Assembly (NCBI GenBank): GCA_964471565.1
Contig: CAYYFK010000001.1
Span: forward strand, 36,692-100,691
Direction: 5' to 3'
DNA from: Candidatus Woesearchaeota archaeon
GTDB taxonomy: Archaea; Nanobdellota; Nanobdellia; SCGC-AAA011-G17; PNOQ01
Length of the DNA: 64,000 nt
Both the position numbers and the translations under genes were made by a program. Under the pieces are notes generated by a model. The model was not told where the DNA came from and made no database searches. It saw nothing but the letters and a program-made list of their open reading frames with translations. Below, piece by piece: positions 14,813 through 50,930 of this stretch (positions within the stretch are counted from its first letter, which is position 1; the number at the start of each line of letters is the position of its first letter).

Positions 14813-14986
14813 ATGGCAAGATATAAACCTCTAGGGAAAAAATTACGTTTAGCAAAAAAGGGAAGGCAAACTAGATGGGCCCCTTTTTGGATAGTTCCAA
14901 AAATAGCCGGAGTTGGCAAAAAAATACACCCTTCAGCATTTACTGCTAAGAAAAGAAGTTGGAGAAGGACCAAAACTGGAGAGTAA
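14813..14986 (+). CDS. rpl39e: Ribosomal protein L39e (not in ORF track)
   Basis: MARYKPLGKKLRLAKKGRQTRWAPFWIVPK...KRSWRRTKTGE. 57 aa. Confidence 0.85.
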   Translation: MARYKPLGKKLRLAKKGRQTRWAPFWIVPKIAGVGKKIHPSAFTAKKRSWRRTKTGE

Positions 14987-14988
14987 AG

Positions 14989-19849: not shown

Positions 19850-20292
19850 AAATAAATACAATTATTGAAATTGCAGGCGCACCAGTAGAACATGTAAAAG
19901 GAACCATAGATAAAATGATGGACATCCTTAAAAAAAATGAAAAAATAGAGATAATCAAACAAGAGATAGCTTCTCCAAAGAAAAATGAAGTAGCTCATCC
20001 AAATGACCCAAAACAAAAAGTAGAGGTATTTTCATCGTTCGCAGAATTAGAGTTAGACTTTCCAAACTTTGATGAATTATTACAATTTTGTTTTGTATTT
20101 ATGCCCTCATCAATAGAAATTGTAGAGCCACAAGAAATAAAAATAAAGCAAAAAGATTTGGAAAATCCATTAAATGATCTATTAGCTAAATTACATAATC
20201 AAGCAAGAGTTATAATGGAGTATGATGCTTTAAGAAAACAAATAATGGCAATGCAACAACAAAAAGCTAATTCTTCTCAAAAGGAAGATTAG
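19837..20292 (+). CDS. Hypothetical cytoplasmic protein
   Basis: 151-aa ORF with no recognisable motif. Coding-like composition, overlaps neighbour by 13 nt. Confidence 0.4.
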   Translation: MEKIKINTIIEIAGAPVEHVKGTIDKMMDILKKNEKIEIIKQEIASPKKNEVAHPNDPKQKVEVFSSFAELELDFPNFDELLQFCFVFMPSSIEIVEPQEIKIKQKDLENPLNDLLAKLHNQARVIMEYDALRKQIMAMQQQKANSSQKED

Positions 20293-21502: not shown

Positions 21503-21503
21503 T

Positions 21504-23287: not shown

Positions 23288-23896
23288 ATGAAGATAATTA
23301 TGCAAATATCAAATATAAAAGAGATAGAATACCTAGCAAAAGGAAAAAGAGGCATTATTTACACTGGAATGTTAAATGGAGAGAAAGTTTCGATAAAGAA
23401 AAAACACCCAGACTCCGAAGCAATTGGTAGAATAAAAAACGAAGCAAAGTTCCTCAAAATATTAAATAAATATGATGTAGGTCCAAAATTAGTAAAAACT
23501 GGGAAAGATTTTATAGTTTATATTTATGTAGAAGGAGATTTTCTACCAGAATTTCTTGAAAAAGAAAAAAGCAAAGAGAAAAAGAGAAAAGTTTTAGTTT
23601 CTATTTTAAAAAAAGCGAGAACATTAGATAAATTAAAAATAAATAAATTAGAATTTACACGACCATTAAAACATATTTTAATTAAATATCCTAAAGTTAC
23701 TATTCTAGATTTTGAAAGATGTTATTATACAGAACATCCAAAAAATGTTACCCAATTTTCCCAATACCTAATTAAAAATAATTTAATGGAAAATGACATT
23801 AAAGTTTTTCAAAATTATAAAGAAAATCAAACAGAAAAAAACTTTAAAGAAATTTTAAAATTAATAAAAAAGAAAAAGAAATTAAAGGTAGAATGA
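23288..23896 (+). CDS. Small protein-kinase-fold protein (Bud32/RIO-like, atypical catalytic loop)
   Basis: AKGKRGIIYTG...VSIKKK (Gly loop plus VAIK-like Lys), YIYVEGDFL hinge, ILDFE (DFG-like). No HxD catalytic loop seen. Confidence 0.35.
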   Translation: MKIIMQISNIKEIEYLAKGKRGIIYTGMLNGEKVSIKKKHPDSEAIGRIKNEAKFLKILNKYDVGPKLVKTGKDFIVYIYVEGDFLPEFLEKEKSKEKKRKVLVSILKKARTLDKLKINKLEFTRPLKHILIKYPKVTILDFERCYYTEHPKNVTQFSQYLIKNNLMENDIKVFQNYKENQTEKNFKEILKLIKKKKKLKVE

Positions 23897-24682
23897 AAAA
23901 GCAAACTCCTCATTCTCAAGGTACAAATCTGGTTCATGGATAACCATGTAATTTCCCACTTGGATTTCTTCTTCACATTTCCCATAGTAGCCTCCTTCTC
24001 CGCACTCACCACTTCCTTCTATATTCCAGATGTATAACTCATCAGCCTCGGATGTGTCCGGATGGTATCCAAAGTAGTTAAATGCACTAACATCACATTT
24101 ACCAGTTGACATCCATCTCAAAAGAACCAAATGGTCACCAGTCAAATCTTCTCCACCAATATTAATTTGTCCTTCAAAAGGATTATACCATACCTGAGCC
24201 GATTCTCCATTTCCTGTGGCAGGAATTATTTTGAAATTCATGCCAAAATATTCTTGGAATACTCCATCAGAGTCTTCATAATAGATTGGTCCCCACAGTC
24301 CCCTTACACTAGTTGGAACAACAATAACAACCCTTCCAGTCTCAAAAGATCCAACTTTGAACCCTTTATCCTGACTTTCCCATCCGATTGCAGTAAATTC
24401 TAGAACATCTTTTTCTATACTACTACCACTACCATCATAGATGTCATAATGTTCCTTTATTTCAATACGATAAGGATATTCGGTAACACATGAACCACAA
24501 TCCTCCTCACAAACCTGACAGGTTTCATCAAAATCACAATTACCATCACCACAATAAGGGCCACCGCCTCCGCCGCCTCCGCCGCCCATATACCGAATAT
24601 TACTCTTTTCTGGCAGCTCAGCACAACTAGAAACAAATAAAGCTCCAACTAAAAACAATGCTATAAAAATAAATTTTTTCAT
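23882..24682 (-). CDS. Secreted protein with lipobox-like signal, Gly9 tract and CGDG Cys module
   Basis: LFVSSC lipobox-like. MGGGGGGGGGPYCGDGNCDFDETCQVCEEDCGSC. Confidence 0.5.
   Translation of the reverse strand: MKKFIFIALFLVGALFVSSCAELPEKSNIRYMGGGGGGGGGPYCGDGNCDFDETCQVCEEDCGSCVTEYPYRIEIKEHYDIYDGSGSSIEKDVLEFTAIGWESQDKGFKVGSFETGRVVIVVPTSVRGLWGPIYYEDSDGVFQEYFGMNFKIIPATGNGESAQVWYNPFEGQINIGGEDLTGDHLVLLRWMSTGKCDVSAFNYFGYHPDTSEADELYIWNIEGSGECGEGGYYGKCEEEIQVGNYMVIHEPDLYLENEEFAFSFYL
24558..24588 (-). repeat. GGN-codon simple repeat encoding the Gly9 tract
   Basis: ccaccgcctccgccgcctccgccgcc inside the CDS. GC-rich island in an AT-rich genome. Confidence 0.7.
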
Positions 24683-26685: not shown

Positions 26686-28701
26686 TCATTTATTTAACTT
26701 TCTAATTGGATTTTTCTGCTCCATGGAAAAAATAACAAATGGTCTATTATCCAAATATTTTCTAACTTTTATATTATCTATAATAACACTTCCCTTCAAA
26801 AAACTGTCTGCATTAAAATTAACCATGCCAATTTCTGAAATTAAATCAAAATTCTCCAAGTTCAAAGCAGATTCCTCATTAAAATAAAAATCAAAATTGG
26901 TATCGGATTTCTGAACAATACTAATATCATTCCAAATAAAATGGTCATACATAATTCCAGTAGGTTCCCACCCATCATATTGATGATTATAAACTAAAAA
27001 TTCATTTATGGCTTCTTCTCCACCAAATTTTAGACGTGCACCAAACCTATCTCCATCTAAATTTTTAATTCCCACTTCTCCCCTACTAAAATGGGTAAAA
27101 TAAATAGAAAAATCAACAGCAACCTCGTTAAGGGATTTATTCATAGATTTAGAATCGACTCCCCCTGGCCTATACAATGGCAACCAACTGAGATAATCAG
27201 AAATAAATTCTCCAGAAATAGTTTCATCCTTTTCTGTTTGAATAAATACCTTATCTTCTGAGCTATCCGAACAAAGAAGATTTTGCTTACTTGTGGCATA
27301 CTCTATAACTGCTCCCACCTTGCTTCCATAATTATGGCATTGACTATTGCAACCAAAATAATACATTCCAATTTGATTTGAACCAATGTCATCTTTAACA
27401 ATAACTGGGTCTTCGACCCTAAGAAAATTATATTCTTTGGTTCCAGTCAAAAAAGGGTTTTTTGAATATCTTGTCCAATTAATTAAATCTGTACTATGGG
27501 CAGCACCCAAGAAAAGCTTGAAATTACCTACTTCCTCCCCCCCATTATAAGTCATCAAATATTGTCCAGGAGACAATTCAATTAATTTAGGGTTCGCAAC
27601 GTGTTTCCCATCCCATTCACCCGATTCCCCTAAAAAACCTGCAGACCCATTATGCATAGGGGTCCAATTATATCCATCATCTGAAGTAGCAAAAAAAATC
27701 TGGAAATGATTCAGGCTAGGATCAATTCCTTCCATTCCCATAATATATCCTCCAGTAGAAAGTTTTATCATGTATGGAATAGAAGGTTTTACATTAGAAA
27801 CTCCATCCTGCCCATAAAATTGATATTCTGTCAGTACAGGATTCCCAATATATTTTTCCCAGTTTATACCATCATATGAAGTAGCAATACCAATTCCATA
27901 ATTATCGCTCGAATTTTTACCGACATAATTCATTAAATAATAATTTTCATCCAGCTTAATAACATTTCCAGTGGCAATTGTACTATCATCCCATTCTCCA
28001 ATTTCTCCTTGACCTAAAACAAGAACGCCATCCGACCACTCTGTTCTTTTAAGTCCTTCAGAAACTGTCCTAAATATTCTGGATCCATCCACCCCAGATC
28101 CATACCCCATATAATACCCAATATAGTGTTCATCTTCAACGACCATATATCCTTTTTCATCAATCATGGGGGCAAATCCCCTAATGCTCTTATTATCTAG
28201 GCCATCTCCATGAGGTTCAATAATAGGGTTTTTCTCGTCCTGTTCCCAAATACCAAGAGAAAACTTATCAAATATTTTAGGGCATTTCCTATTTCCAGAA
28301 TAATCATCAAAATATAAAAAAGTACTATATCCGTCACTTAAACTATTGGCATCATCATTTCCATAATAAAGATAAATTTTATTTTTTATAGCCCCTTTTT
28401 TTGAAGAAGGCAATTTCACCCAAAATTTAGAATTCTCCTTTACATTACATTCCTCTGTCCAAAAATCAAGCAAATTACCACTATAATCTGTAAACCGAAT
28501 ATCTGAGCAATCATAATTTATTTTGCCTCCCTTGTATTCCCTAGCAAATCCCTTATTTATCTCAATTTGGTAGTCGCTAACATCCTCAAAAGATGCAATA
28601 TTCACTGGGATCCTATACTCCCAATTACTTAACCAAGCATAGCTTGGACTAGCTAAGGACAAAAAAATCAAAAATACCAGTAAACTTTTCCATAATTTCA
28701 T
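26686..28701 (-). CDS. Secreted DUF2341-domain protein fused to a 5-bladed beta-propeller glycoside-hydrolase-like domain
   Basis: After the signal: WLSNWEYRIPV...DCSDIRFTD...FWVKLP...IYLYYGNDDA (DUF2341 pattern). Then repeated blades (GINWEKYIGNPVL, NWTRYSKNPFL) like GH43/32/130. Confidence 0.5.
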   Translation of the reverse strand: MKLWKSLLVFLIFLSLASPSYAWLSNWEYRIPVNIASFEDVSDYQIEINKGFAREYKGGKINYDCSDIRFTDYSGNLLDFWTEECNVKENSKFWVKLPSSKKGAIKNKIYLYYGNDDANSLSDGYSTFLYFDDYSGNRKCPKIFDKFSLGIWEQDEKNPIIEPHGDGLDNKSIRGFAPMIDEKGYMVVEDEHYIGYYMGYGSGVDGSRIFRTVSEGLKRTEWSDGVLVLGQGEIGEWDDSTIATGNVIKLDENYYLMNYVGKNSSDNYGIGIATSYDGINWEKYIGNPVLTEYQFYGQDGVSNVKPSIPYMIKLSTGGYIMGMEGIDPSLNHFQIFFATSDDGYNWTPMHNGSAGFLGESGEWDGKHVANPKLIELSPGQYLMTYNGGEEVGNFKLFLGAAHSTDLINWTRYSKNPFLTGTKEYNFLRVEDPVIVKDDIGSNQIGMYYFGCNSQCHNYGSKVGAVIEYATSKQNLLCSDSSEDKVFIQTEKDETISGEFISDYLSWLPLYRPGGVDSKSMNKSLNEVAVDFSIYFTHFSRGEVGIKNLDGDRFGARLKFGGEEAINEFLVYNHQYDGWEPTGIMYDHFIWNDISIVQKSDTNFDFYFNEESALNLENFDLISEIGMVNFNADSFLKGSVIIDNIKVRKYLDNRPFVIFSMEQKNPIRKLNK

Positions 28702-28733
28702 AAAATTTAAAATCTTACTAAACTTATAAAGGT

Positions 28734-29933
28734 TTATTTTCTTCTTTTTCTAAAGTAAATAAACCACCCTATATTGATAAGTACCAAAACAACCAAAGCA
28801 ATTACAATCACATTATTCTTATCCATTCCAGGCCCATTGGCTATCACCGCGCCAGTTCCAAAAAAATCAAACTTAATTGAATTTAAACTAATAATTGTTT
28901 TGACATTTTTCTCTATTTTTTCATCATCATAATTTAAAATTATTTTAAAGTTATATTCTCCTTCTTCTACCCCCGCAGAATCCCAGAAAGCGGTTAACTC
29001 CATTTTAGACATTGGAGGAATATCCTCGGAGGCACTCTTGAATCTGCCTATTTCTTCACTTAAATCCATAACAATTAATTCAACAAATGCATCACTTATT
29101 TCTTCAGACCAACGGTTATCAACCAGAATATCAAATCTGGCAATCTCTCCGAGTCTAAAGTTTTTAACGGTTATATCTATAACCTCTACATTCTTTTCTC
29201 CAACATCAAATATCAAATCACCATAACTTACTTCACCATCATAAGTTAATGTAAGCTTAGCATAATATTTCCCTATATTTATTGGGCCATTCCAAGTAGC
29301 CTGAAATTCTTTTCTATTTTGTGCATCTATAGAATCCAGCTTAGTCTCTAATGTAATTATTTTCTCATTAGTCAAACCATATATATCTATTATCCCTTTG
29401 GCATTTACTATTTTTTGATTCCCAAGATTGCTAGCTACAATTCTAAAATCCACTTGATCTATTCTTCCCGTCTCTATTATGTTTAAATCAGAAATAACAT
29501 ATTTCCCAGGATAAGGAACCTTTATTCTTAATTGATGTACAACTGCTACACTTGCCCCCATCATGGTATCCGATGTAGCATAATCTTTTGGAATTTCCCT
29601 TACAACTATTTTGACATCATGGTCTCCAGGGATACCAAATTTATTAGGTAAATTATATGAATATCGAATGGTTTTTGATTCCTCTCCTTCTATAAATTCC
29701 AATTCATAATCTTCAAGTCTCACAACGTTTGCATCATCTCCCTCTAAATAGATAACAACTTTCATTTCTTTATTCTCAGTATTAATTATTTTCAAACTAA
29801 TTTCATCTTCCAACCCTGGTTCAAAATCTACTATCTTCCTTGCTGGAGAAATTCCTAAGGCACTTACTTCATTGATAAAAATAATAAGAACTAAGAAAAA
29901 CATACAAATTCCTATTTTTTTTATTAATTTCAT
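28734..29933 (-). CDS. Surface protein, N-terminal signal and C-terminal TM anchor (paralogue of 38797..39945)
   Basis: Signal ...EVSA|LG. C-terminal VIVIALVVLVLINIGWFIYFRKRRK. Aligns by eye with 38797..39945. Start overlaps giant gene stop by 4 nt. Confidence 0.6.
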   Translation of the reverse strand: MKLIKKIGICMFFLVLIIFINEVSALGISPARKIVDFEPGLEDEISLKIINTENKEMKVVIYLEGDDANVVRLEDYELEFIEGEESKTIRYSYNLPNKFGIPGDHDVKIVVREIPKDYATSDTMMGASVAVVHQLRIKVPYPGKYVISDLNIIETGRIDQVDFRIVASNLGNQKIVNAKGIIDIYGLTNEKIITLETKLDSIDAQNRKEFQATWNGPINIGKYYAKLTLTYDGEVSYGDLIFDVGEKNVEVIDITVKNFRLGEIARFDILVDNRWSEEISDAFVELIVMDLSEEIGRFKSASEDIPPMSKMELTAFWDSAGVEEGEYNFKIILNYDDEKIEKNVKTIISLNSIKFDFFGTGAVIANGPGMDKNNVIVIALVVLVLINIGWFIYFRKRRK

Positions 29934-32900
29934 TCTGTTAAGCTACTCTCAAACAATATATATGAGGTTTTGTTTCCTGCAGGCTCATCTGAAGGAAGTT
30001 CTATTAATATTTCACATTGCGCAGTATCATTAGTATCTTGATATTTCAATGAATCAATAGCAATAACTTGTGCAGTGGCCATGTTTGTCCAAGTAACAAA
30101 AGAGTTCAACCAATCAAATGCTGTTTCTTCACTACTATTATCAATTCTAAACTGGTAGTATGAAGTATCCATTGCAACAGCATCAAATAATGTGGTCGCA
30201 TTAACGCTAATATTAATTAAAGCATTACCATCATTTTTAACTACGATTGGTGTAGGGCTTTCATCAGTGGTATTATCCATATCTCCCGTATATAATCTCC
30301 CAAAATTGGGAGATTCATTAATCAAACTAACCGCCAAGAGAGATTGGACAGTAAAATTATACGGATCACTCCAAACTCCCAAGTCAGAGGAATCATTAGC
30401 CCTAACTCTCCACCAATAACTTAAATCTAAATCTAAATCACTAAGGATAGTATACTCATTAGTCGCAGGAGAAACATTTATTATAATCGGTTCTGAAAAA
30501 GCATCACTATCATCTAACTCCAGCAAGTAGGTTAAACTATCTCCATCAGCATCATTAGGAATACTCCAATTTGATGTCTCAGTCCTATCTACTGTTATGT
30601 TTAAATTTGCCGGGCTATCTAAAACAACTTGATTTGGGGGTTTATTCAAAATAAGTAGGGGATTTGATAAAGTAACCGGACCATCTTCCTCTAGATCATT
30701 TGGAGTTATAGCAACAGACCAATTATGTGTTTTCACTGTACCATTAGATAGAATTCTCATAGGAGAATGATTTGCTAACCCCGCTTGATAATTAGCTAAA
30801 ATTTGTTCACTTGAAAGGGATTCATTATATATTCTTAGTTCATCTACACTTCCATTAAACATTCTACCTGGATAATAGGTATCTCTTCCTACCAGCACAT
30901 CAATACTTGAATCTCTTATATTCCCAGTATATTCTTCGCCCTCTGTCCTTACTCCATCAATATATAAAGAAATATTTTGTCGATCATAAACTCCAACAAC
31001 ATGGTGCCACCCTCCTACAGAAACCCCCCCAGAAGTAGTTGCAGAATAGGCTTGATCGGCAGCTGCAGCGCCCAATATTCTGAATTGTACATCTCCGCTT
31101 GTCCAAGCCCTAAGCAAAAAAGAGTTTCTATGGCCTGCAGTTCCTTCTGCAGCACCAGACCCCTTCATAACAAAAGATTGGTAATCAAGATCTTTAGATT
31201 TATTTACCCATATTTCTACAGTTAGTTCTTTAGTTATATTCAAACTATCGGTGTGACTAAAATTAATATATGGTCTTACACTTTCATTTGGATTAAGAGA
31301 ATACGCTCCCCCCTTTGCTCCACTATTTATCCATACAGGGTAATTTAGTGAAGAGCCACCCTCCCATTGCTGGAGAGTACCATTATTTCCAAAAGTAGAA
31401 TAATCTTTTATTATATTTAAAGCAATAGAAGATTCATTTGAATCAAAAGGAGCATTCAAAACAGCCGAAGAATTTCCATTCAACCTCCAATCTGTTATGT
31501 TATAAATTCCATCTCCATCATTATCTACATAAGTATCAAAATAAACAGTTAAATTTTCATCGGTGTAATTAGTATTGCTATCTGAAGTTGTATTTAATAG
31601 AACATTTGTGTATGCTGATGGAATGGTATTCAAAATAGTTATATTGCTAGAATTCCCCCATCCACCAAAAATAGTGCCATCATGCAATCTTATACTACAA
31701 TTCCATACCTCCCACTTGGTAGTATTTGAACTATTTAGGGTTGCATTAAATAATGTTCCGCTTGCATAAGAATCATTGTAGTCCTGACTCAACCATAGAA
31801 CTGAATTATTATACCACCTTACACTAACATTTAATTTATTAGAATCTGGATCAGTTATTGTAGCTGAACAATTTAAGTTTTGAGTAGTATAATTTGTTGG
31901 CCCGCCTGTAGCATTTAAAAGAGGACTTGGGGTATTGGGAGCAACATTACTAGTCCCTGTAGTAAAATTATAAGTTCCAGTTTCGTTACAATTATTCTCA
32001 TAATCACAAGAGGTTAAATTATAATAATATATTGTACCTTCTGACAACCCAGATAGATTAAAAGAATGGAATAATCCCAAACTTAAGTTTCCATAAGTTG
32101 TTCCTAGGGAAACAGTTCCCCCATAATTAAGGGAGGCATTTGAAGATTCTTGACTAGTCCAATTTATATCTACAGTAGTATAGCCAGTTGTATTAGTTCT
32201 ATTAAGTACCCAAGGAATTTCTTCGGTTGCCGAGAATATTGAATTATAATCTAGGTTATACTTCTTTTGTTGTTCTGTAAAGTTATATCTTATGCCAGTA
32301 TTATTTTCCCAAGATACATTTTGATTGGAGTTATTTAAAATGATTATATTATCGTGGGTTGTAAAATTAGTATTTGAGAAATTTGTTCCATTATCTGAAA
32401 ATCCATAGATATAGCTTTGGTTGTGCACATAAATTCTATTATTATAGACTTGGAGATTAGTTACATTTCTAGGATTTTCATACTTAGCATTCTTTGCTAC
32501 AATGGCCATTGGGCTTTCAGTCCTATTATAATTTGGACAAAAGAAGGTATTATTGTAAATTGTTGTATTGTGTCCTGCCCTTGTTACAAACCCTTCAAAA
32601 TTTGTTTGATTTTCCATAGTATTATTATATGCCCGATATAATGTTTCATGTTTGGATAAAATTCCATATCCCCCCCCTATTACACGATTATATCTTATTG
32701 TAGTATTAAACGTGCTTGCTGTAAATAGTGGGTGTTTACTTGTATGAACCCTTGCCATCCTAATTGTATTATTTTCTATAATTGTATCATTCATATCTCC
32801 TTGAAAATTAGTAACTGTATCTTCCCCAACATAAATTGAATATCCTGCAGGAACAGATATTGCAGAAACATTATGATCTATGGCATTATTCCTTATAGTC

Positions 32901-35900
32901 ATATTTTTGTTTGGTCCGTTGCCTGCTCCTTTTATGTGGATTGGGACCCCATCACTTATGTAAAAAGAGTTATTTTCGAACAAACTATTAGAAACATTAA
33001 TCACCCTAATTGCATATCCATTTGTTGATCCAGTACTCATATTAAGGAATCTTGTATCATTCCCCCATACATTATTTTGTATTTTCAACCCACCATTGTT
33101 ATTTGCAGATGCATGGATTGAAACCCATGCTCCAGAAAAATTTCCATGCCAGAAAGTATTATTTTTTATTAATAGGTTTTGGCTATTATTTATTGTTATT
33201 CCATACCTATTAATATAATCATTTTGATTTCCAAATTGATTATCTTTAATTTGCCAATTAGAACCAATATTATTTACTTCTATACAAGAAGAGCTAGAAT
33301 TTTCAAAATAATTTCCTTGAATAATTGTATTATTTGGAGAAGGTCCATAATATTTTATATGTGTACTAGTTAATTTATATGTAAAATTATTATTCTTTAT
33401 TGTTACATTTGAAGAATCATAACCAGATATTCCAGTCCCGGTATTATTGAAAACATTATCTTCAATGTGCCAATTATGTCTTGGACCGGGGGAGCCGCCA
33501 TAATCATACATTGCTATTCCATAACTTGTTGTATTCACAAAGGTATTATTATAAAGATTTATCACTCCAGTTCCCTGGTCTGCCCAAATTCCATCCTCTG
33601 TATTATTCCCATCTATGACAAAACCCTTAAACGTAACATTATTTGCTCCTGTAATAAATCTTATAACAATAGAAGAAGCACTAGTATTTGCTTGTATTAC
33701 TGCTTGTGATTTATTATAAGAAATAAAAGTTCTATTCTGTACATTCTTATCCATAATTAATAAGTAGTTTGATGCATAAGATTGTTCCCTGTATAATCCA
33801 TCTCCAACATAAATAATCGCATTTGCTCCCGCTGTATTTTCTGCATAATTTATAGTCTTCCATGCATCTTTCCAAGAAGTTCCAGCATTAGTATCGTCCC
33901 CATTCTTAGAAACATAATAAGTATTATTAAATTCTTTAAGAGTAAACTCACTTGAATTACCCCACTCACTTCCAGCAAGGCTATCATTTAATCTCATAGC
34001 ACAATGCCAGCTATCTCCTTCGGCCGTATTTCCAGAATCCAAAGATCTATTGAACAAAGTTCCACTAATATAACTATTAGTAGAATTAGTAAAATTTCCT
34101 TCGACTATGTAATCATTACTTCTATACCACCTTACTGTAACATTCATTTTATCAGAATCTGGATCAGTTATTGTAGCAGAACAGTTTAAATCGACAATGG
34201 GAGAATTAGATCCGTCTGTGGTATTTAGAATTGGGCTTGGGTTATTTGGAGCACTATTAGCAGTTCCAAACTCAAAGAAAATAGATTTATCACTTGTTAA
34301 ATTAACCTCCTTAAATTGTCCATCATAACTAGAATGATTAACTACAATAGTGTAATTGGTTTTATATCCATAATTTCCATGGGTCCTATTAATCAAACGT
34401 TCAGTTAGGTTTTGTCTAACTATATTACCATTAATATCTGTTGTAAGATTAAAAACAAGATTATTGGATTTAAATTTAGGCTTGCTCCCACCAGTATTAT
34501 TATATCCCTGAACAACAGAATCCGAAAGATTGCTATTATCAGTAGATAAATTGGTTTTAACATCCAAAAACCATTTAACCTCAAAAGAGTTCCACCCCCT
34601 ATCCCACTGAATATTTCCTGAAGAAGTATTTAATAACGTGTTATTTTCATCTCGTTCTCCGTTCGCCATTCGAAAATTAAGAGAGGATCCAGACACAATA
34701 GAATTAATAAAAGTATTATAAGTTAAATTGGACATATAAAGTGCAGTAGCAGCAGTAATACTAACATTATTGAAAGTATTGCTCTCAGAATGGTAAGTAA
34801 GCCCCCCATATGTGCCTGCAGCATTACAGCTTGAATTTACTATGTGCCCATAAAGGCTTCTACTCATATACATACAATTTGAGTTAGAATCAAAATTAGC
34901 AGAAGTAAGATTAAAATTATCTGTCTCGTGAACATATAAGGCATAGGAGGAAGAGCCCGCCCCAGTAAAATTATTTACAATTAACCCATCGATAGTATGA
35001 GCATATAAACAATAAGTTCCACAAGAACCAACAGAGTTATTTATTAAAGAAATGTCATTAAGACTTCGAGCATAAACTCCCGTAGTAGTAGAAGAAATGA
35101 TATTATTATTAGTAATATTATTAAAAGGACCGTTTGGATAAAGATAAAAACCATATTTATTCCCCTTAAGAGTATTATTATCAAATATATTATTCCTAGA
35201 AGTACTTTGAACAGAGTAGAATGCTGCTGAAGCAGTTTGGGAAGTATGGTTTTCAATTCTATTATCAACCATAGTGCTATTTTGAAAGTTTAACCCAAAA
35301 TCAATTCCATAGTCTTGTGAAGAATCTGTAGTATATATCGTATTATTAGTTATAGTCCAGTTTCCACCATAGCTTAAAAGCATTCCATGATCTGTATTAT
35401 CATAAATTATATTATTTTTTACAATAATATCATATAAATAGGTAACATATATTCCCCATCTATTACTACTAATATTATTGTTACTAAAATTTAACCCATA
35501 AGATCTAGTTGATGAAGAGGCCCTAATGCCTGCCCCACCAGTAATGTTATAAAAAGTATTGCCATCTACTAACCCCCCATTTGTATTTTTAAAATCGATT
35601 CCTAATAATGAACCAGAACCCTGGTAATTCTTAAAAGTATTATTTACAAAAGAAACATTGCTACTAGTCTGAGATTTAATTCCATAATCATACAACTCAG
35701 TAAAAGTATTATTCAGCCAAAGGTTATTATTTCCCCAATTAAATCCGCCCATAGCAAATTGTTTAATATGACAATTTTTTACTGTTATTCCATGTTTATT
35801 ATAAGCTATCCATATTCCCCAATTAGAATCATCCACATTATCTCCATCTATTATATGTCCATCACAATCCAAAACAGTATTGGTAGCAAGAGATAATCCA

Positions 35901-37474
35901 TTTGCAGCACAGTTAGTTATATCATTCTCCATAATCACAGTACCAGAAATTGCTTGTCCACAACTCAAAACATCATTATAAGCATAGGCAATCTGATTTC
36001 CAAATTCAAATTTTAAATAATGCTTAGCATCAGTCAAAACTTTACTAATTTCAATTCCAGTTTCTAAACAAGAGTAATTTTCAACAAAAACAGAGCCATT
36101 CTCCCATAAATATCCAACGCTCTCATTTCCGCATTTCAAATCTAAAAACTGTAAATCTAAATCATTCTTTTCTTTTATGTCCCAAGTTGTTCCATTAAAT
36201 GGTTTTATACTTAAATTGGCAGTTCCTGTTGTATTAAATCTTACAGTCCAATTTCCGCCCACATATGGATAACTTTGAACATTTAAAATTATAATCTCAA
36301 TTTCAAATTCTTTTTGTTTATCTAAAACTGGAATAATCCATTCAATATAATCAATCAAACCATCCTCATCTAAATCTTTAGTTTCAAATTCTCTCTCTAA
36401 CCGTCCTTCCTTTTCTAAAATATACAAATCAATACTTTCCTTAGGAACATTATCTAAATAAGTGTAGACTAAAACATTTTCAAACTCTTTTCCGCTTACA
36501 AAAACCTTCTTTCTCTCATTTCCAAGTTCAACTTCTTTAGATTCAGGACCAGGAGTAGAATATTTTATCAAAAACTCTTTAGAAGGATTCTTTATAGAAA
36601 GTTTATTTTCATCTAACTCATAAACTACTTCTCCAGTAGTTCTAAAAACATCCTTGAAAAAATTAAAAACAACATTGCCTGTAATCAAATTTTCGGATTC
36701 CTTTTCTTTACCCTTCTCAACAAAATCTTCATCATAGCCTATTTCATAATATTCTATATCAAAAACATCCTCAGGCAATTCAACATCATACAAATCTATT
36801 CTATTTTTTAACTTAACCTTCTTTTCCCAAACAACAGGTTGGTTAATTACAACCCCCAAATTCTTCAATGAAACCTCCTCAATCAAAGTTTCATTTACAA
36901 TTTCTACTACTTCATCCAAACTTAAATTTAACACACTATCATTTTTCACATGACTAGAAATATTTTCATCAAAGGTAGATTCATTATCCTCGGGGGTTGT
37001 TTCATTTAAATCAGTAGATTCATTATGTTCAAAAGTAGAATCATTTATTTCTGTAGAAATATTTTGTTTAACTCCCCCTATACCTTCATCCTCCAAACTA
37101 TTTTCAAAAGAGGGTTCTTCTTCAAAAATCTCTTCCTCAGAATCATCTTCTGGAAGTTTTTCTTCTTTCAATTCTTCTTGTGCAGGTTCCTCTAACTGTC
37201 CCTCCCCAGAAAGGCCAGCCACACCTTCTGAACCACTTTCAATATCAGATATTTCAACAACATCAAATCCTTGATAAGCAAACATTCCTAAAAAACCAAA
37301 TAAAAAAAGTAGTGCAACTAAAAAAAATAAAGTAAAAAAAGAAGTATTTCTCTTGGTAGGATCACTAGTTCCTAAATAAACACTTTTTACTTTGCCATCT
37401 TTTGTTCTAACACTTTTAAAATAGTAAGGACCAAATTTCTTTCCAGCTCTAGATATATACTTCTTATAAACCAA
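29930..37474 (-). CDS. Giant (2514 aa) membrane-anchored surface glycoprotein/adhesin with beta-helix repeats, Ig/FN3-like internal repeats and a LamG-like domain
   Basis: TTG start with GAGGGG RBS. N-terminal basic region plus TM. Hundreds of N-x-S/T sequons. PbH1-like repeats (NNIIYDNTDHG...ITNNTIY). LamG signature DELRIYNESLSSEQILANY. Two ~105-aa repeats. Confidence 0.8.
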   Translation of the reverse strand: MVYKKYISRAGKKFGPYYFKSVRTKDGKVKSVYLGTSDPTKRNTSFFTLFFLVALLFLFGFLGMFAYQGFDVVEISDIESGSEGVAGLSGEGQLEEPAQEELKEEKLPEDDSEEEIFEEEPSFENSLEDEGIGGVKQNISTEINDSTFEHNESTDLNETTPEDNESTFDENISSHVKNDSVLNLSLDEVVEIVNETLIEEVSLKNLGVVINQPVVWEKKVKLKNRIDLYDVELPEDVFDIEYYEIGYDEDFVEKGKEKESENLITGNVVFNFFKDVFRTTGEVVYELDENKLSIKNPSKEFLIKYSTPGPESKEVELGNERKKVFVSGKEFENVLVYTYLDNVPKESIDLYILEKEGRLEREFETKDLDEDGLIDYIEWIIPVLDKQKEFEIEIIILNVQSYPYVGGNWTVRFNTTGTANLSIKPFNGTTWDIKEKNDLDLQFLDLKCGNESVGYLWENGSVFVENYSCLETGIEISKVLTDAKHYLKFEFGNQIAYAYNDVLSCGQAISGTVIMENDITNCAANGLSLATNTVLDCDGHIIDGDNVDDSNWGIWIAYNKHGITVKNCHIKQFAMGGFNWGNNNLWLNNTFTELYDYGIKSQTSSNVSFVNNTFKNYQGSGSLLGIDFKNTNGGLVDGNTFYNITGGAGIRASSSTRSYGLNFSNNNISSNRWGIYVTYLYDIIVKNNIIYDNTDHGMLLSYGGNWTITNNTIYTTDSSQDYGIDFGLNFQNSTMVDNRIENHTSQTASAAFYSVQSTSRNNIFDNNTLKGNKYGFYLYPNGPFNNITNNNIISSTTTGVYARSLNDISLINNSVGSCGTYCLYAHTIDGLIVNNFTGAGSSSYALYVHETDNFNLTSANFDSNSNCMYMSRSLYGHIVNSSCNAAGTYGGLTYHSESNTFNNVSITAATALYMSNLTYNTFINSIVSGSSLNFRMANGERDENNTLLNTSSGNIQWDRGWNSFEVKWFLDVKTNLSTDNSNLSDSVVQGYNNTGGSKPKFKSNNLVFNLTTDINGNIVRQNLTERLINRTHGNYGYKTNYTIVVNHSSYDGQFKEVNLTSDKSIFFEFGTANSAPNNPSPILNTTDGSNSPIVDLNCSATITDPDSDKMNVTVRWYRSNDYIVEGNFTNSTNSYISGTLFNRSLDSGNTAEGDSWHCAMRLNDSLAGSEWGNSSEFTLKEFNNTYYVSKNGDDTNAGTSWKDAWKTINYAENTAGANAIIYVGDGLYREQSYASNYLLIMDKNVQNRTFISYNKSQAVIQANTSASSIVIRFITGANNVTFKGFVIDGNNTEDGIWADQGTGVINLYNNTFVNTTSYGIAMYDYGGSPGPRHNWHIEDNVFNNTGTGISGYDSSNVTIKNNNFTYKLTSTHIKYYGPSPNNTIIQGNYFENSSSSCIEVNNIGSNWQIKDNQFGNQNDYINRYGITINNSQNLLIKNNTFWHGNFSGAWVSIHASANNNGGLKIQNNVWGNDTRFLNMSTGSTNGYAIRVINVSNSLFENNSFYISDGVPIHIKGAGNGPNKNMTIRNNAIDHNVSAISVPAGYSIYVGEDTVTNFQGDMNDTIIENNTIRMARVHTSKHPLFTASTFNTTIRYNRVIGGGYGILSKHETLYRAYNNTMENQTNFEGFVTRAGHNTTIYNNTFFCPNYNRTESPMAIVAKNAKYENPRNVTNLQVYNNRIYVHNQSYIYGFSDNGTNFSNTNFTTHDNIIILNNSNQNVSWENNTGIRYNFTEQQKKYNLDYNSIFSATEEIPWVLNRTNTTGYTTVDINWTSQESSNASLNYGGTVSLGTTYGNLSLGLFHSFNLSGLSEGTIYYYNLTSCDYENNCNETGTYNFTTGTSNVAPNTPSPLLNATGGPTNYTTQNLNCSATITDPDSNKLNVSVRWYNNSVLWLSQDYNDSYASGTLFNATLNSSNTTKWEVWNCSIRLHDGTIFGGWGNSSNITILNTIPSAYTNVLLNTTSDSNTNYTDENLTVYFDTYVDNDGDGIYNITDWRLNGNSSAVLNAPFDSNESSIALNIIKDYSTFGNNGTLQQWEGGSSLNYPVWINSGAKGGAYSLNPNESVRPYINFSHTDSLNITKELTVEIWVNKSKDLDYQSFVMKGSGAAEGTAGHRNSFLLRAWTSGDVQFRILGAAAADQAYSATTSGGVSVGGWHHVVGVYDRQNISLYIDGVRTEGEEYTGNIRDSSIDVLVGRDTYYPGRMFNGSVDELRIYNESLSSEQILANYQAGLANHSPMRILSNGTVKTHNWSVAITPNDLEEDGPVTLSNPLLILNKPPNQVVLDSPANLNITVDRTETSNWSIPNDADGDSLTYLLELDDSDAFSEPIIINVSPATNEYTILSDLDLDLSYWWRVRANDSSDLGVWSDPYNFTVQSLLAVSLINESPNFGRLYTGDMDNTTDESPTPIVVKNDGNALINISVNATTLFDAVAMDTSYYQFRIDNSSEETAFDWLNSFVTWTNMATAQVIAIDSLKYQDTNDTAQCEILIELPSDEPAGNKTSYILFESSLTE
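31631..31948 (-). repeat. Internal domain repeat copy 2 in giant gene (NVAPNTPSPLLN...CSATITDPDSNKLNVSVRWY...)
   Basis: See copy 1. The copies are about 2.3 kb apart within the same ORF. Confidence 0.7.
33944..34258 (-). repeat. Internal domain repeat copy 1 in giant gene (NSAPNNPSPILN...CSATITDPDSDKMNVTVRWY...)
   Basis: About 30-nt near-identical DNA core (agaatctggatcagttattgtagcagaaca) shared with copy 2. Protein copies about 50% identical. Confidence 0.7.
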
Positions 37475-37566
37475 TCTACACCCCTCTTTTTAATAAAAAT
37501 AAACAAGAAAAAGTGATATAAAAACCTTTCTAAATCAGTTTACCTACAAAATAATAAAAAGAAAAA

Positions 37567-37884
37567 TTAAATGTCTCTAAGTTCTTCTTGTATTTTTCTA
37601 ATTTTTGCTAATTTTTGTTTTATCTCTAGCACTTTAGCCTGTGCTTTAGATTTATCTTTATTATAACTGCCCTCTTTCTCCACCAGCTTAGAAATCTGAT
37701 CTCTTAATTCCATCTCCTTAGACTGAGCATTCACCATTTTACTATTCAAAGAACCCACCCTTTTAGATACCTTATCTCTTTCGGCCTTCAGCTTCAGCAA
37801 CTCTTTTGATATATCTCCCAAAGCCTCAACAAGGGAACCTCTCTTCATGGGTGTTTTAAGAACCTTCTTTTTTTTAGTAACCAC
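37567..37884 (-). CDS. Small coiled-coil protein
   Basis: 105 aa. Heptad-like K/E-rich sequence (LKLKAERDKVSKRVGSLNSKMVNAQSKEMELRDQISKL). Confidence 0.45.
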   Translation of the reverse strand: MVTKKKKVLKTPMKRGSLVEALGDISKELLKLKAERDKVSKRVGSLNSKMVNAQSKEMELRDQISKLVEKEGSYNKDKSKAQAKVLEIKQKLAKIRKIQEELRDI

Positions 37885-37924
37885 TTTATACCTTTTTAAT
37901 TTTATTAATATATAAATCTTTCTT

Positions 37925-38800
37925 TTATATTTTTTTCACCATATTATTTATTCTCTTTAGTCCTTTTCTATACGCATCCTGCCCTATATATTTAGAATCG
38001 TATGCTTTTTTTAACAATCTTTTTTGCCTACTTAACTTATTTGCCATAGCAGTCTTTGCTTCTCGTGTTTTTTTGTTTTTTCTGTATGTTCCATACATTC
38101 TCTTTAATCTCTTAGATTGCGTTTTTTCTATTCTTCTTAATTTTGTTTGGTGGAATATAAAAACAAGCAATATAGCAATTCCCAACAAAACTAAAACAAA
38201 CCAGAATCCTACTTCCCATCCGGATGGAAAGAAAATCATTGGTTGTTTAATCTTTTCAGTTCTAGTTCTAGGAACACTCTTATCTCCAATAAGAGTCAAA
38301 TCGAGTGCTTTAAATTTTATTCCAACCCCATTAAAACTTGCCACTAAATCATCAGAACCATCCTCATCCAAATCAAAGAACAATAGTTCATCTGGAAGAA
38401 GACCAAACTTCTGACCAGAAATTTCTAAAATAAGTTTTTCATTGGCCCTATAGAAATAAACACTAAACTCAAACTCAGTTCCTAACTCAAAAATAGTAAG
38501 TACTTTATCCCCCGCTGATAAACCCTCTATCAAATATTCTTCATTTTCTGTAAAATCTAGAGTATGTGTTACAGGAGCAGCTCCACCTCCGGCTCCGCCA
38601 CTTCCCCCTCCAGATCCACCATCATCTCCAGGAGGATCAGAAGGTACAATTACATTCAAACCAACAGTGGCAGTAGCATAAGAATCTTCAGGAGCCACAG
38701 AAGAAGAATACTTAAAATACAATACACTTGGCATAACTATAGAAATAATTATTAATGCGAAAGCTAAAGAGGCAATTACTTCTCTTTTATACACTTTCAT
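37925..38800 (-). CDS. Bitopic membrane protein with Gly-rich linker and basic C-terminal tail
   Basis: N-terminal TM. DDGGSGGGSGGAGGGAAP. Second TM VGFWFVLVLLGIAILLVFIF, then a K/R-rich coiled tail. Confidence 0.5.
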   Translation of the reverse strand: MKVYKREVIASLAFALIIISIVMPSVLYFKYSSSVAPEDSYATATVGLNVIVPSDPPGDDGGSGGGSGGAGGGAAPVTHTLDFTENEEYLIEGLSAGDKVLTIFELGTEFEFSVYFYRANEKLILEISGQKFGLLPDELLFFDLDEDGSDDLVASFNGVGIKFKALDLTLIGDKSVPRTRTEKIKQPMIFFPSGWEVGFWFVLVLLGIAILLVFIFHQTKLRRIEKTQSKRLKRMYGTYRKNKKTREAKTAMANKLSRQKRLLKKAYDSKYIGQDAYRKGLKRINNMVKKI

Positions 38801-39945
38801 CTTTTACCATCTCTTTTTTTCTTTATTCTTATCAAAATAAAATACCCAATTCCAAATACAATAATAAAAATACCTGCCCCTACCCAAAGAATGGAATAAT
38901 CAAATGATTTAACTTCAATATCAAATTCTTCTTCAGTGTGTATATCATCATAAATAAGGCTCAATCTAGCAGGATATTTTCCAGAACTCATTCCTTCAGC
39001 ATCCACATATATTAAAACATCTCTTTCCTCCCAAGAATTTAATCTAAATGTCTCACTTTTGAAAGACTTAAATGGATTATGATATATTTCTAAAAAAGCA
39101 ACTACATTATCTATTTCATTACCCCAATCACTTTTCACTCTCAAATAATATCGGTTTATTGTACCAACCTCTACATCATTATCATAATCTAAAATAGAAA
39201 CATGTACATCTCCCAACTTAAAATTTGCCATAGATTCAGAAGTTTTACCTTGAAAGTTTAAAGTTGACATGCCCCAATAGTCTCCAAATGTATTATCTTC
39301 AGGATTCCATTTCATTTGTATCTCTTTTATTTCTCCCAATTCTAATTGATCATTAAAAGAAAGTTGACCAACACTCTCGTTATAAACATTAAAAATATCT
39401 ATAACTCCTTCAATATTACTAAGAGCGACACTACCTGTATTTTCCATTTTTAAATAAAAAGGAACTAGCTCTCCAACCGAAACACTAGTAGCTTTCAATC
39501 TTGAGCTCAAGTATGGCCCTTCAAAAGGCACTCTAACAATAAAAATACTCGCAGAAGCAGTTAAAACACTAATAAAATCGGTTGATTCTTCAATAGCGAT
39601 TTCACTAGCAACAAAATCAAAACGATAATCTCCAGGTTTTTCAAATTTTTCTGGCATGAGAATATTAAATCTAAAAGCTTTAGTTTCCCCAGGTTGGAAT
39701 AAATACTCCTGAGTTACAAAGTCTGTATAGTTTTCCATTTCACCATAAACAAACATCTTTCCAAGAACTTGCTCTTCATTAGAATTTCTAACATGAACAC
39801 TAACTCCTTTTGCCATTCCAGATTCAAATGTAACTACATCCTTACTTGGAGTTACCTCCAAAGCATACGCACTAGAAAACATACACAACAAAACCAAGAA
39901 AATAATTATTCCCCTCTTTACCATGTTTAAAGAAAAAGAAAGCAA
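38797..39945 (-). CDS. Surface protein, N-terminal signal and C-terminal TM anchor (paralogue of 28734..29933)
   Basis: Signal ...SSAYA|LE. C-terminal ILWVGAGIFIIVFGIGYFILIRIKKKRDGKR. Shared blocks with 28734..29933 (PGDYRFDFVASEI vs PGDHDVKIVVREI; GVIDIFNVYNE vs GIIDIYGLTNE). Confidence 0.6.
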   Translation of the reverse strand: MLSFSLNMVKRGIIIFLVLLCMFSSAYALEVTPSKDVVTFESGMAKGVSVHVRNSNEEQVLGKMFVYGEMENYTDFVTQEYLFQPGETKAFRFNILMPEKFEKPGDYRFDFVASEIAIEESTDFISVLTASASIFIVRVPFEGPYLSSRLKATSVSVGELVPFYLKMENTGSVALSNIEGVIDIFNVYNESVGQLSFNDQLELGEIKEIQMKWNPEDNTFGDYWGMSTLNFQGKTSESMANFKLGDVHVSILDYDNDVEVGTINRYYLRVKSDWGNEIDNVVAFLEIYHNPFKSFKSETFRLNSWEERDVLIYVDAEGMSSGKYPARLSLIYDDIHTEEEFDIEVKSFDYSILWVGAGIFIIVFGIGYFILIRIKKKRDGKR

Positions 39946-39963
39946 GGTTTTTAAAAATTACTA

Positions 39964-40530
39964 TTATCCTGTAAAGGTGCAAATAAAAGTTATAGTTCCA
40001 CTTTTCATTCCTGATCCCTCTCCGATTGGAACAGTAGCATTTACACTAACATTCATCTCATCAGTAGCAGCCGCAAAAGCTAGATCAGAAACCAAAATTT
40101 CGGCCGCACCAACAGAATTATTAATAATTTTAAAGCCAGTTACGCAAGTTCCACTTTCAGTTTCATTACATTGCATTGTCCAATTTTGAGTTGGTGCTGT
40201 CTCTGTTATAAATAAATCATCCGTAGAATAACCAGTTATGTTCTGCCCCACATTTCCTGTATTCTCCAAAACTATAAAATCTGGAACCGTAATCTCTTCG
40301 CTCCTATTATAATTTCCCCTAGTTATATTTCCTAAATTAATTGTACTATCTATAGCACTACAGGCAGTAGTGGTATTGACCTCCAATTTAACAGTTCCAG
40401 TAGTAGTAGCAGCTCCAGTTATAGTGTCCATAAAAGAAACACTAAGCCAAGTTCCAGAAACAGAAGCGATAATCGCCATAGCCAATAAAATAGCTAAACT
40501 ATTATTCGATGCCTTCATTTCCCTCAACAC
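39964..40530 (-). CDS. Secreted N-glycosylation-rich small surface protein, tandem paralogue 1
   Basis: Signal MKASNNSLAILLAMAIIASVSG. About 10 N-x-S/T sequons in 188 aa. About 75% aa identity to 40779..41321. Confidence 0.6.
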   Translation of the reverse strand: MLREMKASNNSLAILLAMAIIASVSGTWLSVSFMDTITGAATTTGTVKLEVNTTTACSAIDSTINLGNITRGNYNRSEEITVPDFIVLENTGNVGQNITGYSTDDLFITETAPTQNWTMQCNETESGTCVTGFKIINNSVGAAEILVSDLAFAAATDEMNVSVNATVPIGEGSGMKSGTITFICTFTG

Positions 40531-40801
40531 CCTCTTCTTTTATTTCATCAGCCACGACATTCAAACCTACAAATCCAGTAGCACTAGACTCCAAAACTAT
40601 ATTATTAGTGACTGGCCCACCATAAGAATGAGAATAGTCATAAACTGCATATGCCCCAAAGATGGAAACAATAACTGCCACAACCAACAAAGCAATAATG
40701 ACCTTGTCAGAGACCTCTCTCTTATCACCTTTTTTCATATAAAGAATATGAGAAGTAAAAATATATAAATCTTTTCCTTTAACCAGAGTATGTACAAACA
40801 A
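40502..40801 (-). CDS. Small membrane protein (likely starts at internal MKKGDKRE...)
   Basis: MKKGDKREVSDKVIIALLVVAVIVSIFGAYAV: one TM helix, acidic C-terminus. Lies between the tandem paralogues. Confidence 0.35.
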   Translation of the reverse strand: MFVHTLVKGKDLYIFTSHILYMKKGDKREVSDKVIIALLVVAVIVSIFGAYAVYDYSHSYGGPVTNNIVLESSATGFVGLNVVADEIKEEGVEGNEGIE

Positions 40802-41321
40802 AAGTTATAGTCCCAGTTTTCATTCCAGAGGACTCTCCGATAGGTACAGTAGCATTCACACTAACATTCATCTCATCAGTAGCAGCTATAGTAACCAAAT
40901 CATTAACTAATGTTTCCGCAGTTCCTACAGACGAATTTATTATTTTAAACCCATTCACACAGGTTCCACTCTGGCTTACATTGCACTGCATTGTCCAATT
41001 TTGAGTAGGGGCAGCTGAAGAATCAAACAAATCCGAAGTAGAATAACCAGTTATATTAAGTAAAACATTTCCGTTATTCTCAATAACAACAAAATCAGTA
41101 TCAGGAGTGCCATCAATCTCTTCACTCCTATTATAATTTCCCCTAGTTATATTTCCCAAATTAATTGTACTATCTGTAGCAGTACAAGAAGTAGAAGCAT
41201 TAACTTCCAATTTTATAGTCCCAGTTGTAACTGCTGCCCCTGTTATAGTATCCATAAAAGAAATTGCTACCCACGTGCCAGTTATAGTAGACACAACTGA
41301 AATTACCAACAAAATCACCAA
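40779..41321 (-). CDS. Secreted N-glycosylation-rich small surface protein, tandem paralogue 2 (non-ATG start)
   Basis: Long DNA stretches identical to paralogue 1 (e.g. ctcctattataatttcccctagttatatttcc). No in-frame ATG; upstream in-frame codons still encode ...SNNFLVILL matching the paralogue-1 signal. Confidence 0.55.
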   Translation of the reverse strand: MVILLVISVVSTITGTWVAISFMDTITGAAVTTGTIKLEVNASTSCTATDSTINLGNITRGNYNRSEEIDGTPDTDFVVIENNGNVLLNITGYSTSDLFDSSAAPTQNWTMQCNVSQSGTCVNGFKIINSSVGTAETLVNDLVTIAATDEMNVSVNATVPIGESSGMKTGTITFVCTYSG

Positions 41322-41379
41322 AAAATTATTCGAAAGTCTAATTTATTCTCCTCTTTTTACTGAATATAAAATATTTATG

Positions 41380-49555: not shown

Positions 49556-49593
49556 AATTTATAAAACATAAAGGATGTTTAAAAATGTTTCTT

Positions 49594-50922: not shown

Positions 50923-50930
50923 ACCTCTTT

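Follow-up and report, generated by a model that had tools for sequence, protein, structure and literature searches.

In the Lactobacillales and Bacillales, WxL/Csc gene clusters encode small WxL proteins, a large WxL protein, a WxL-interacting protein (WxLIP) made of DUF916, DUF3324 and a transmembrane (TM) segment, and an LPxTG protein. One or two small proteins consist of the WxL domain only, the large protein is a beta-helical or immunoglobulin (Ig)-like adhesin with a C-terminal WxL domain, and the WxLIP combines two Ig-like domains with a TM helix (PMC9772566, PMC10599100). The WxLIP binds the WxL domain, which AlphaFold predicts to occur by insertion of a beta-hairpin (PMC9772566, PMC10599100). 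WxL domains have been reported as bacterial only (PMC9772566). We describe here a block of nine minus-strand genes (26686-41321) found in a 64-kb stretch of contig CAYYFK010000001.1 from a Candidatus Woesearchaeota archaeon, the whole of this stretch being called the window. The reading we prefer, held at about even confidence, sees in the block a module by which a DPANN (Woesearchaeota-like) archaeon anchors and displays proteins at its surface, following the logic of the Gram-positive WxL/Csc clusters. Its nearest archaeal precedent is a predicted secretion or membrane complex associated with arCOG01314, which groups Ig-like membrane or "S-layer-like" proteins with a MoxR ATPase and DUF58/vWA genes (PMC5898192, PMC6393860). 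MoxR, vWA and DUF4350 genes were absent from the open reading frames (ORFs) of the window that were scanned with Pfam, which are a part of all its ORFs.

Layout of the gene block

The nine ORFs are transcribed in the order P2, mini-protein, P1, Q1, bitopic protein, coiled-coil protein, giant protein, Q2 and DUF2341 protein. Their features are as follows.

40779..41339 (-), P2, small secreted P-domain protein, called from TTG 41321, start probably ATT 41339
40502..40738 (-), mini-protein of 78 aa, with a TM helix at the N-terminus followed by a short strand motif (ATGFVGLNVV)
39964..40518 (-), P1, small secreted P-domain protein, 184 aa from ATG 40518
38797..39945 (-), Q1 anchor protein, in which a signal peptide precedes three Ig-like domains and a TM helix at the C-terminus
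37925..38800 (-), Gly-rich bitopic protein: N-terminal TM and strand motif, ectodomain, second TM, basic cytoplasmic tail
37567..37884 (-), cytoplasmic coiled-coil protein of 105 aa, with Pfam matches of coiled-coil type only and no signal peptide
29930..37474 (-), giant protein of 2,514 aa, characterized by its Pfam domains, sequons and homologues
37274..37342 (-), TM segment of the giant protein, residues 45-67, read from the sequence
30800..31270 (-), LamG domain (Laminin_G_3, Pfam) of the giant protein, residues 2069-2225
29936..30376 (-), C-terminal P domain of the giant protein, residues 2367-2513 (P-domain hidden Markov model, E 1.1e-57)
28734..29933 (-), Q2 anchor protein, paralogue of Q1, whose start overlaps the giant stop by 4 nt
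26686..28701 (-), secreted DUF2341 and GH43/GH130-like protein, a lineage-specific neighbour outside the core

A preliminary description of this DNA had listed the same nine genes, and all of them lie at the coordinates it gave, together with the two 4-nt overlaps that it reported between the giant stop and the Q2 start (29930-29933) and between Q1 and the bitopic gene (38797-38800). The two paralogue pairs that it named are likewise real, with 71% identity between P1 and P2 (E 5e-95) and 26% between Q1 and Q2 over their full length (E 4e-36). Q1 and Q2 do bracket the giant gene as it had stated, but P1 and P2 both lie upstream. When the nine proteins were searched against Pfam and NCBIfam, only the giant and the DUF2341 protein received a name, in agreement with their earlier description as a beta-helix/LamG and a DUF2341 protein; the surface location of the products and the adhesin-like character of the giant also fit their sequence features.

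Tight spacing and a common strand had been offered as further marks of the block. The spacing is as described: the starts of P1, Q1, the bitopic gene and Q2 overlap the preceding gene or lie at most 18 nt from it. However, co-directionality and tight spacing do not distinguish the block from its surroundings, because unrelated neighbours share them. Indeed, the minus strand holds nearly all genes between 20267 and 42812, beyond the block on both sides, and only 19-58 nt separate the block from an unrelated methyltransferase gene and from a gene for a 289-aa protein. The flanks are housekeeping genes, with a tRNA intron endonuclease gene and the 289-aa protein gene on one side, and an RNA/DNA methyltransferase-like gene and a Cas4-like nuclease gene on the other.

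For comparison, related loci (numbered with the prefix L) were taken from five GTDB genomes (Woesearchaeota, Nanoarchaeota and metagenome-assembled genomes labelled "archaeon") and from metagenomes, in which 79 loci were kept from 410 confirmed matches to one 9-residue pattern, [VI]xVPYPGKY. An Aenigmarchaeota contig was also included.

The P domain and the giant protein

The giant protein closes with a stretch of ~147 aa that shows homology to P1 and P2 (against P1, E 7e-5 with BLASTP and E 1.7e-5 with hhalign), and a "P domain" of ~150 aa was defined on this basis. Joint alignment shows that invariant N-[DT]-G-N and P.DE..G.K motifs are common to P1, P2 and the giant C-terminus, and P2 matches the P-domain hidden Markov model with E 2.8e-55. 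The terminal copy in the giant is the key link within the block and was missed by the preliminary description. P1 and P2 are essentially the P domain behind an N-terminal hydrophobic segment, with four conserved Cys in P1. Across 79 loci, 168 P-domain ORFs occur either as small proteins or as the C-termini of proteins of 316-3,147 aa. No recurrent Pfam match for the domain was obtained in 29 diverse members, and P-domain profiles found no relative in the PDB.

The giant matches Beta_helix (1.4e-28), Laminin_G_3 (6.8e-26) and NosD (3e-13) in Pfam. From the N-terminus, it displays a cytoplasmic motif, a TM helix, an acidic linker, two beta-helix regions, fibronectin type III (FN3)-like repeats, the LamG domain and the P domain. 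Its homologues of 316-3,147 aa all end with a P domain, and their domain content varies as well as their length. The basic cytoplasmic motif KKYISRAGKKFGPYYFKSVRTKDGKVKSVYLG that precedes the TM helix is also found in 7 of 24 complete large P-domain proteins. In a more general form, VYKKYIKRGGKxFGPYYFKSVRxxxGKVKSVYLG stands before the TM segment of many large P-domain proteins, lying in the region of residues 1-44 in the giant (37343-37474) and recurring in L013, L026, L028, L036, L062, L064, L080 and L094. Given its own N-terminal TM helix, the giant may be tethered at both ends, or cleaved.

N-glycosylation sequons are ~2.4-fold more frequent than expected from composition in the giant (143), P1 (10) and P2 (9). 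They are depleted in Q1 (2), Q2 (0) and the bitopic protein (0), and nearly absent from the mini-protein too. As read from the sequences, this pattern suggests exposed cargo on a shielded, membrane-proximal base.

The Q family of anchor proteins

Q proteins are type I membrane proteins whose three Ig-like domains are followed by a TM helix at the C-terminus. The Q1 model (predicted local distance difference test, pLDDT, 80) comprises a signal peptide, Ig-like domains at residues 29-139, 146-244 and 249-346, and a TM helix at 351-380. A HMMER scan of 1.84 billion representative proteins returned 3,678 Q-family representatives at E<=1e-3 and 1,499 at E<=1e-30, these being representative clusters at 50% identity. 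Word-indexed homologue searches had given 7-31 matches, badly understating family sizes, which the full scan corrected. Nearly all of the top 150 relatives have ~400 aa and align end to end; among the top 148, 134 carry a C-terminal hydrophobic stretch and 136 are nearer to Q2 than to Q1. The ten relatives that were looked up are all annotated as "hypothetical protein", with no other name.

The best PDB match of the Q1 model is EfmWxLIP1, a WxL-interacting protein. Foldseek against the PDB gave only generic tandem-Ig matches such as hydin and macroglobulins, and the Q profiles found nothing specific there by sequence. In Pfam, WxLIP_HBD (DUF3324) is matched by 27 of 52 diverse Q members (best E 1.2e-7) and WxLIP_PGBD (DUF916) by 5 of 52. 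The sequence signal linking Q to WxLIP is weak by itself, and it is the structural ranking, based on a model, that makes the link credible; the Q anchor is probably homologous to WxLIP. As for chaperone-usher pili, Q resembles the PapD-like chaperones only in fold; usher and outer membrane are absent here, and Q is membrane-anchored with three domains.

Conservation of two sub-modules

A check of synteny in relatives, suggested at the outset, shows two sub-modules, A and B, that recur across 84 further loci in varying relative order. Close relatives (62-78% identity) prove little because they keep the block and its housekeeping flanks alike, but flanks differ between distant loci. Sub-module A consists of a mini-protein (62-96 aa), a small P protein (~190-245 aa), a Q1-type protein (~370-390 aa) and often a ~140-aa TM-plus-Ig protein. 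It then ends either with a bitopic protein (295-450 aa) and a coiled-coil protein (99-120 aa) or with a 670-aa protein, a 56-aa AbrB/MazE-like protein and a 1,300-aa protein. Sub-module B consists of a large protein (316-3,147 aa) whose last domain is a P domain, in most cases a small protein of ~160 aa, and a Q2-type protein (~400 aa). The order A-B is found in the window, L003 and L020-L023, and the order B-A in L010 (with an insertion sequence element in between), L011, L012/L014 and most metagenome loci. In L010, the interval 11388-15115 between sub-modules B and A holds transposase-like genes and a gene for an unrelated 615-aa surface protein.

When all neighbouring ORFs were clustered, the Q family comprised 126 ORFs in 87 loci. 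A protein with a C-terminal P domain is encoded at most three genes upstream of a Q2-like gene in 55 of the 62 loci with enough upstream sequence, and a small P gene has a second Q gene just downstream in at least 23 of 48 loci. Each kind of P-domain gene is trailed by its own Q paralogue. The eight genes other than the DUF2341 gene belong together far beyond chance. The earlier view of one apparatus rather than scattered genes stands for these eight, which recur together in the 5 GTDB genomes and the 79 loci, but not for the DUF2341 gene.

The latter is a lineage-specific neighbour and not a core member. Homologues of its product, which matches DUF2341 (E 9.5e-19) and, weakly, GH43_rel and beta-1,2-mannobiose phosphorylase, occur only in the window's own contigs and its closest relatives L020-L023. 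L026 and the more distant loci whose sequence runs past Q2 lack the gene, and no relative of the protein was found in the PDB by sequence.

These data bear directly on the idea that the block is made of independent surface proteins, kept together only because compact genomes stay collinear. The housekeeping genes conserved around the block in close relatives speak for it, as do the undistinctive spacing and strand and the several promoter-like sites inside the block. However, core families remain adjacent despite different flanks, in either sub-module order and in Woesearchaeota-like as well as Aenigmarchaeota genomes, and the families are tied to each other by shared domains. Mere collinearity is contradicted because the sub-modules are rearranged between loci; the idea is largely refuted by the synteny data, and we give it hardly any probability.

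The structure of sub-module B also recalls the SlaA/SlaB pair of Sulfolobales, in which the gene of a large glycoprotein precedes that of an anchor made of a beta-sandwich and a C-terminal TM helix. The giant and Q2 would then be the S-layer pair, with the P proteins and Q1 as a second lattice component. Here too, a sequon-rich large protein is directly followed by an Ig-like protein with a C-terminal TM helix. Comparable Ig-like membrane proteins in a MoxR/vWA neighbourhood have been labelled "predicted S-layer proteins" (PMC5898192), and a MoxR AAA+/DUF58/VWA (BatA-like) operon adjoins the module in L005 (4286-7092), L012/L014 (14952-17830 in L014) and L065/L069 (11980-13858 in L065), a neighbourhood that recalls the arCOG01314-associated complex. 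However, no homology to SlaA/SlaB was detected, and beta-helix, LamG and FN3 are modules of adhesins or glycan-active proteins. A lattice is unlikely because the length of the large partner varies ten-fold, from 316 to 3,147 aa, and such variation is typical of adhesins or enzymes and not of lattice proteins. This range argues against the S-layer-like structure envisaged in the preliminary description, and we regard an S-layer pair as improbable.

A proposed display module resembling WxL/Csc clusters

The same description did not recognise the arrangement as one already known. It does, however, resemble the WxL/Csc clusters, and not only through the best structural match of Q1. In both cases, small secreted proteins consisting of a docking domain alone accompany a large adhesin-like protein that carries this kind of domain at its end; both also include small anchored proteins and a protein with tandem Ig domains, a signal peptide and a TM helix at the C-terminus. 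Giant residues 2367-2513 correspond to the end of the large WxL protein in logic only, with a different domain. By analogy, and with roughly equal chances of being right or wrong, the P domain would take the place of WxL and Q that of WxLIP. The display logic is that of WxL clusters, whereas the docking domain, the host's domain of life and the accessory genes are different.

In the mechanism that we propose, Q proteins would hold the P domain through non-covalent contacts, perhaps with beta-strand complementation of the kind predicted between WxLIP and WxL, and this docking would tether heavily glycosylated, variable cargo at the cell surface. The beta-helix and LamG parts of the cargo might then bind host or substrate glycans, or cut them. 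The mini and bitopic proteins, which have an N-terminal TM-plus-strand segment in common with the P proteins, would act as membrane-embedded accessory subunits, and the basic cytoplasmic tail of the bitopic protein, together with the coiled-coil protein, would link the complex to the cytoplasm.

The locus also departs from WxL/Csc clusters. It has two Q paralogues, one per P-domain gene, an additional bitopic protein with a cytoplasmic tail, a coiled-coil protein, and a DPANN archaeon as host. An LPxTG motif was found in none of the nine block proteins, and sortase is missing as well.

Several points weigh against the display reading. Pfam WxL (PF13731) has no match at E<=1 in 29 P-domain proteins, and the dual W-x-L motif is absent from the P-domain alignments. 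Q has three Ig-like domains and not two as in WxLIP; the WxLIP matches of the Q family are weak and mostly under the gathering score, with CARDB matches nearly as frequent (21 of 52), and neither Q1 nor Q2 has a WxLIP match in the Pfam scan. Archaea of this kind are without peptidoglycan, in which they differ from the bearers of WxL/Csc clusters. The structure prediction of members that had been called for gave a confident model for Q1 but not for P1, whose AlphaFold2 model from an 8-sequence alignment has a pLDDT of 34, too low for the fold to be read. With its N-terminal TM helix and cytoplasmic motif, the giant may already be anchored at that end, and docking of its C-terminus to Q2 would then be topologically odd. 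Finally, the promoter-like motifs described below suggest, instead of a single operon, several units whose strong promoters resemble each other.

In full-text searches of the literature, no description was found of an archaeal WxL-like counterpart, of a LamG surface cluster in DPANN, or of this module. DPANN archaea account for much of the diversity of archaea, and for most of them a life attached to host cells is assumed; to our knowledge, hardly any of their attachment molecules has been described. The module would carry into wall-less archaea a display principle so far known in Firmicutes alone, and the combination of a conserved anchoring core with variable, glycosylated beta-helix/LamG cargo is the pattern expected of host recognition under diversifying selection. 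It is also common, as indicated by ~3,700 Q representative clusters and by the 410 confirmed metagenome loci retrieved with a single pattern, yet its proteins are without names.

Accessory proteins and a shared N-terminal segment

The mini-protein of the type found in the window occurs in 8 loci and a related family of ~65 aa in 13, always directly 5' of a small P gene; the two families match each other (hhalign 96.6%), and mini-proteins match the N-terminus of the bitopic family (90.6%). The bitopic family is present in 13 loci and the coiled-coil family in 9, where it always follows the bitopic gene. Profile comparison links the families to one another. The ectodomain of the bitopic family matches Q domains 1-2 (hhalign 97.3%, E 2e-11), a link that exists at the family level only, as the short bitopic copy of the window gave no match to the Q profile when compared alone. 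The ~140-aa family matches Q domain 1 (hhalign 96.9%, E 1.5e-10) and, over its whole length, the P-domain alignment (88%, profile-profile), whereas a control comparison of the coiled-coil with the bitopic family by the same method gave no match.

A Cys knot, CGDGxC...ExCxxCxxDCGxC, often located after a Gly run, is present in two other proteins of the window, h266 (23882-24682) and h581 (21504-23249), and in most members of the bitopic family. The bitopic consensus carrying the knot derives from L010, L011 and L064; the window's own bitopic protein is devoid of it.

The mini, small P, ~140-aa and bitopic families and many large proteins have a common N-terminal segment, which consists of a very short leader, an (I/V)-S-N-N-type motif, a conserved hydrophobic helix, usually TG.A, and a G.VNLT(I/V)-like strand. 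The TG.A after the helix fits the -3/-1 rule of a putative signal peptidase I site. This segment is suggestive of a donor-strand fibre, in which P1 and P2 would polymerise in a TasA/AbpA-like or thread-like manner through the N-terminal strand freed by cleavage at TG.A. Q1 would be an initiator or anchor comparable to TapA or AbpB, a terminating strand would come from the mini and bitopic proteins at the membrane, and the giant, as an adhesin at the tip or the base, would be attached by the P domain at its C-terminus. AbpB has 410 aa with a signal peptide and three beta-rich domains, and AbpA 204 aa (PMC9245690); the succession of a small P protein (~190 aa) and a Q protein (~380 aa, three beta domains) is parallel to AbpA followed by AbpB. 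More generally, AbpA/AbpB and TasA/TapA share with this locus a pilin-sized secreted protein preceding a ~400-aa secreted protein of three beta-rich domains, as well as an N-terminal strand after the signal peptide, and small P genes are present as tandem copies in several loci. Unlike in these systems, Q has a C-terminal TM helix and the P domain is also fused to the end of large proteins. No Peptidase_M73/TasA match was obtained with Pfam in 29 P-domain proteins, nor any TasA, AbpA or thread-subunit match with P-domain profiles in the PDB, and a Q gene of its own for every P-domain gene fits 1:1 docking better than a polymer. Such a fibre appears unlikely, though it keeps some weight.

A bolder proposal, speculative and rather doubtful, is that the TM-plus-strand proteins (mini, P1/P2, ~140-aa family, bitopic and giant) assemble by strand exchange on Q platforms. 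They would form a new class of archaeal appendage, neither type IV pilus nor TasA-like, with interchangeable giant glycan-binding proteins as its tip or decoration and with the bitopic and coiled-coil proteins as its coupling to the cytoplasm. If this were true, many DPANN archaea could use a strand-exchange appendage as their main organelle of host attachment.

The same N-termini evoke type IV pilins. The mini, P, ~140-aa and bitopic proteins would then be pilin-like subunits retaining their helix, with the machinery encoded elsewhere. The sequence (K/E)-(I/V)-S-N-N-x-L-x-x-L-L-x-x-A-I-V-x-S found in four families resembles that of mature archaeal pilins, one weak Arch_flagellin match was recorded (E 0.18), and a Peptidase_A24 prepilin peptidase is encoded 11 kb away (52614-53492 (+), E 6e-12). 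However, the N-termini of 28 small P proteins have leaders of 1-5 residues without a [KR]-[GA] site, Pilin_N has no match, and the TG.A after the helix resembles a signal peptidase I site. Moreover, neither a FlaI/PilB ATPase nor TadC/FlaJ occurs among the scanned window genes, the recurrent families of the related loci examined, or the representatives searched with Pfam. A pilin-like set is accordingly very improbable.

Gene starts and promoter-like motifs

The gene extents were first called as 40779-41321 for P2, 40502-40801 for the mini-protein and 39964-40530 for P1. The most likely start of P1 is ATG 40518 (MKASNN...) and that of the mini-protein ATG 40738. For P2, the start is probably the non-canonical ATT 41339, since a start at the called TTG leaves out the conserved SNN motif: just upstream of this TTG, the in-frame sequence reads stop-I-R-L-S-N-N, with GAGGAG located 5 nt before the ATT. 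Public gene callers truncate P2 to 158 aa (P0006), R-L-S-N-N being coded within 41322-41339.

Three promoter-like motifs lie in the block, where BRE stands for transcription factor B recognition element.

40762..40774 (-), BRE/TATA-like motif AAAGATTTATATA, ~27 nt upstream of the mini-protein start
37909..37921 (-), copy of AAAGATTTATATA upstream of the coiled-coil gene, also found 5' of coiled-coil homologues in L003 and L031
37517..37529 (-), variant motif AAAGGTTTTTATA upstream of the giant gene, also found 5' of large P-domain genes in L026 and L028

The AAAGGTTTTTATA site is preceded by a T-rich tract and followed by a GAGGGG Shine-Dalgarno-like site. The window contains three copies of the pattern AAAGRTTTWTATA where 0.21 are expected, all in intergenic gaps of the block and ~27-55 nt before the mini, coiled-coil and giant genes; this enrichment is partly circular because the pattern was picked after seeing the sequences. 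Judging from the motifs, the likely transcription units are P2, mini-P1-Q1-bitopic, coiled-coil, giant-Q2 and DUF2341.

Other genes of the window

Two adjacent minus-strand genes (20267-23249) encode h581, Cys-rich with an acidic stalk and a C-terminal TM helix, and h411, with Ig-like regions and a C-terminal TM helix. Being near Q2 in L009, they were considered as extra members and rejected, since a flanking kinase gene and a 150-aa gene are collinear too. They are kept in L009, L020-L023 and L026 with collinear neighbours, so this conservation is no evidence of a link to the module.

Guanine-cytosine (GC) content is even across the window (28-35%), so the block is not a compositional island. 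GC skew follows the coding strand over the whole window, from -0.26 to -0.47 in minus-strand genes and from ~0 to +0.15 in plus-strand genes.

Four consecutive minus-strand genes at 47682-52091 (325, 304, 442 and 386 aa), without Pfam match and kept in L003, may form a second surface module; two of their products have lipobox-like N-termini (FVAAC, ISSC) and one is multi-TM. On the plus strand, a free-standing LAGLIDADG-like ORF lies at 11170-11940, and two surface or glycan-related genes encode a CBM96-containing secreted protein (12087-13769) and a Lamin-tail-domain protein (18452-19849).

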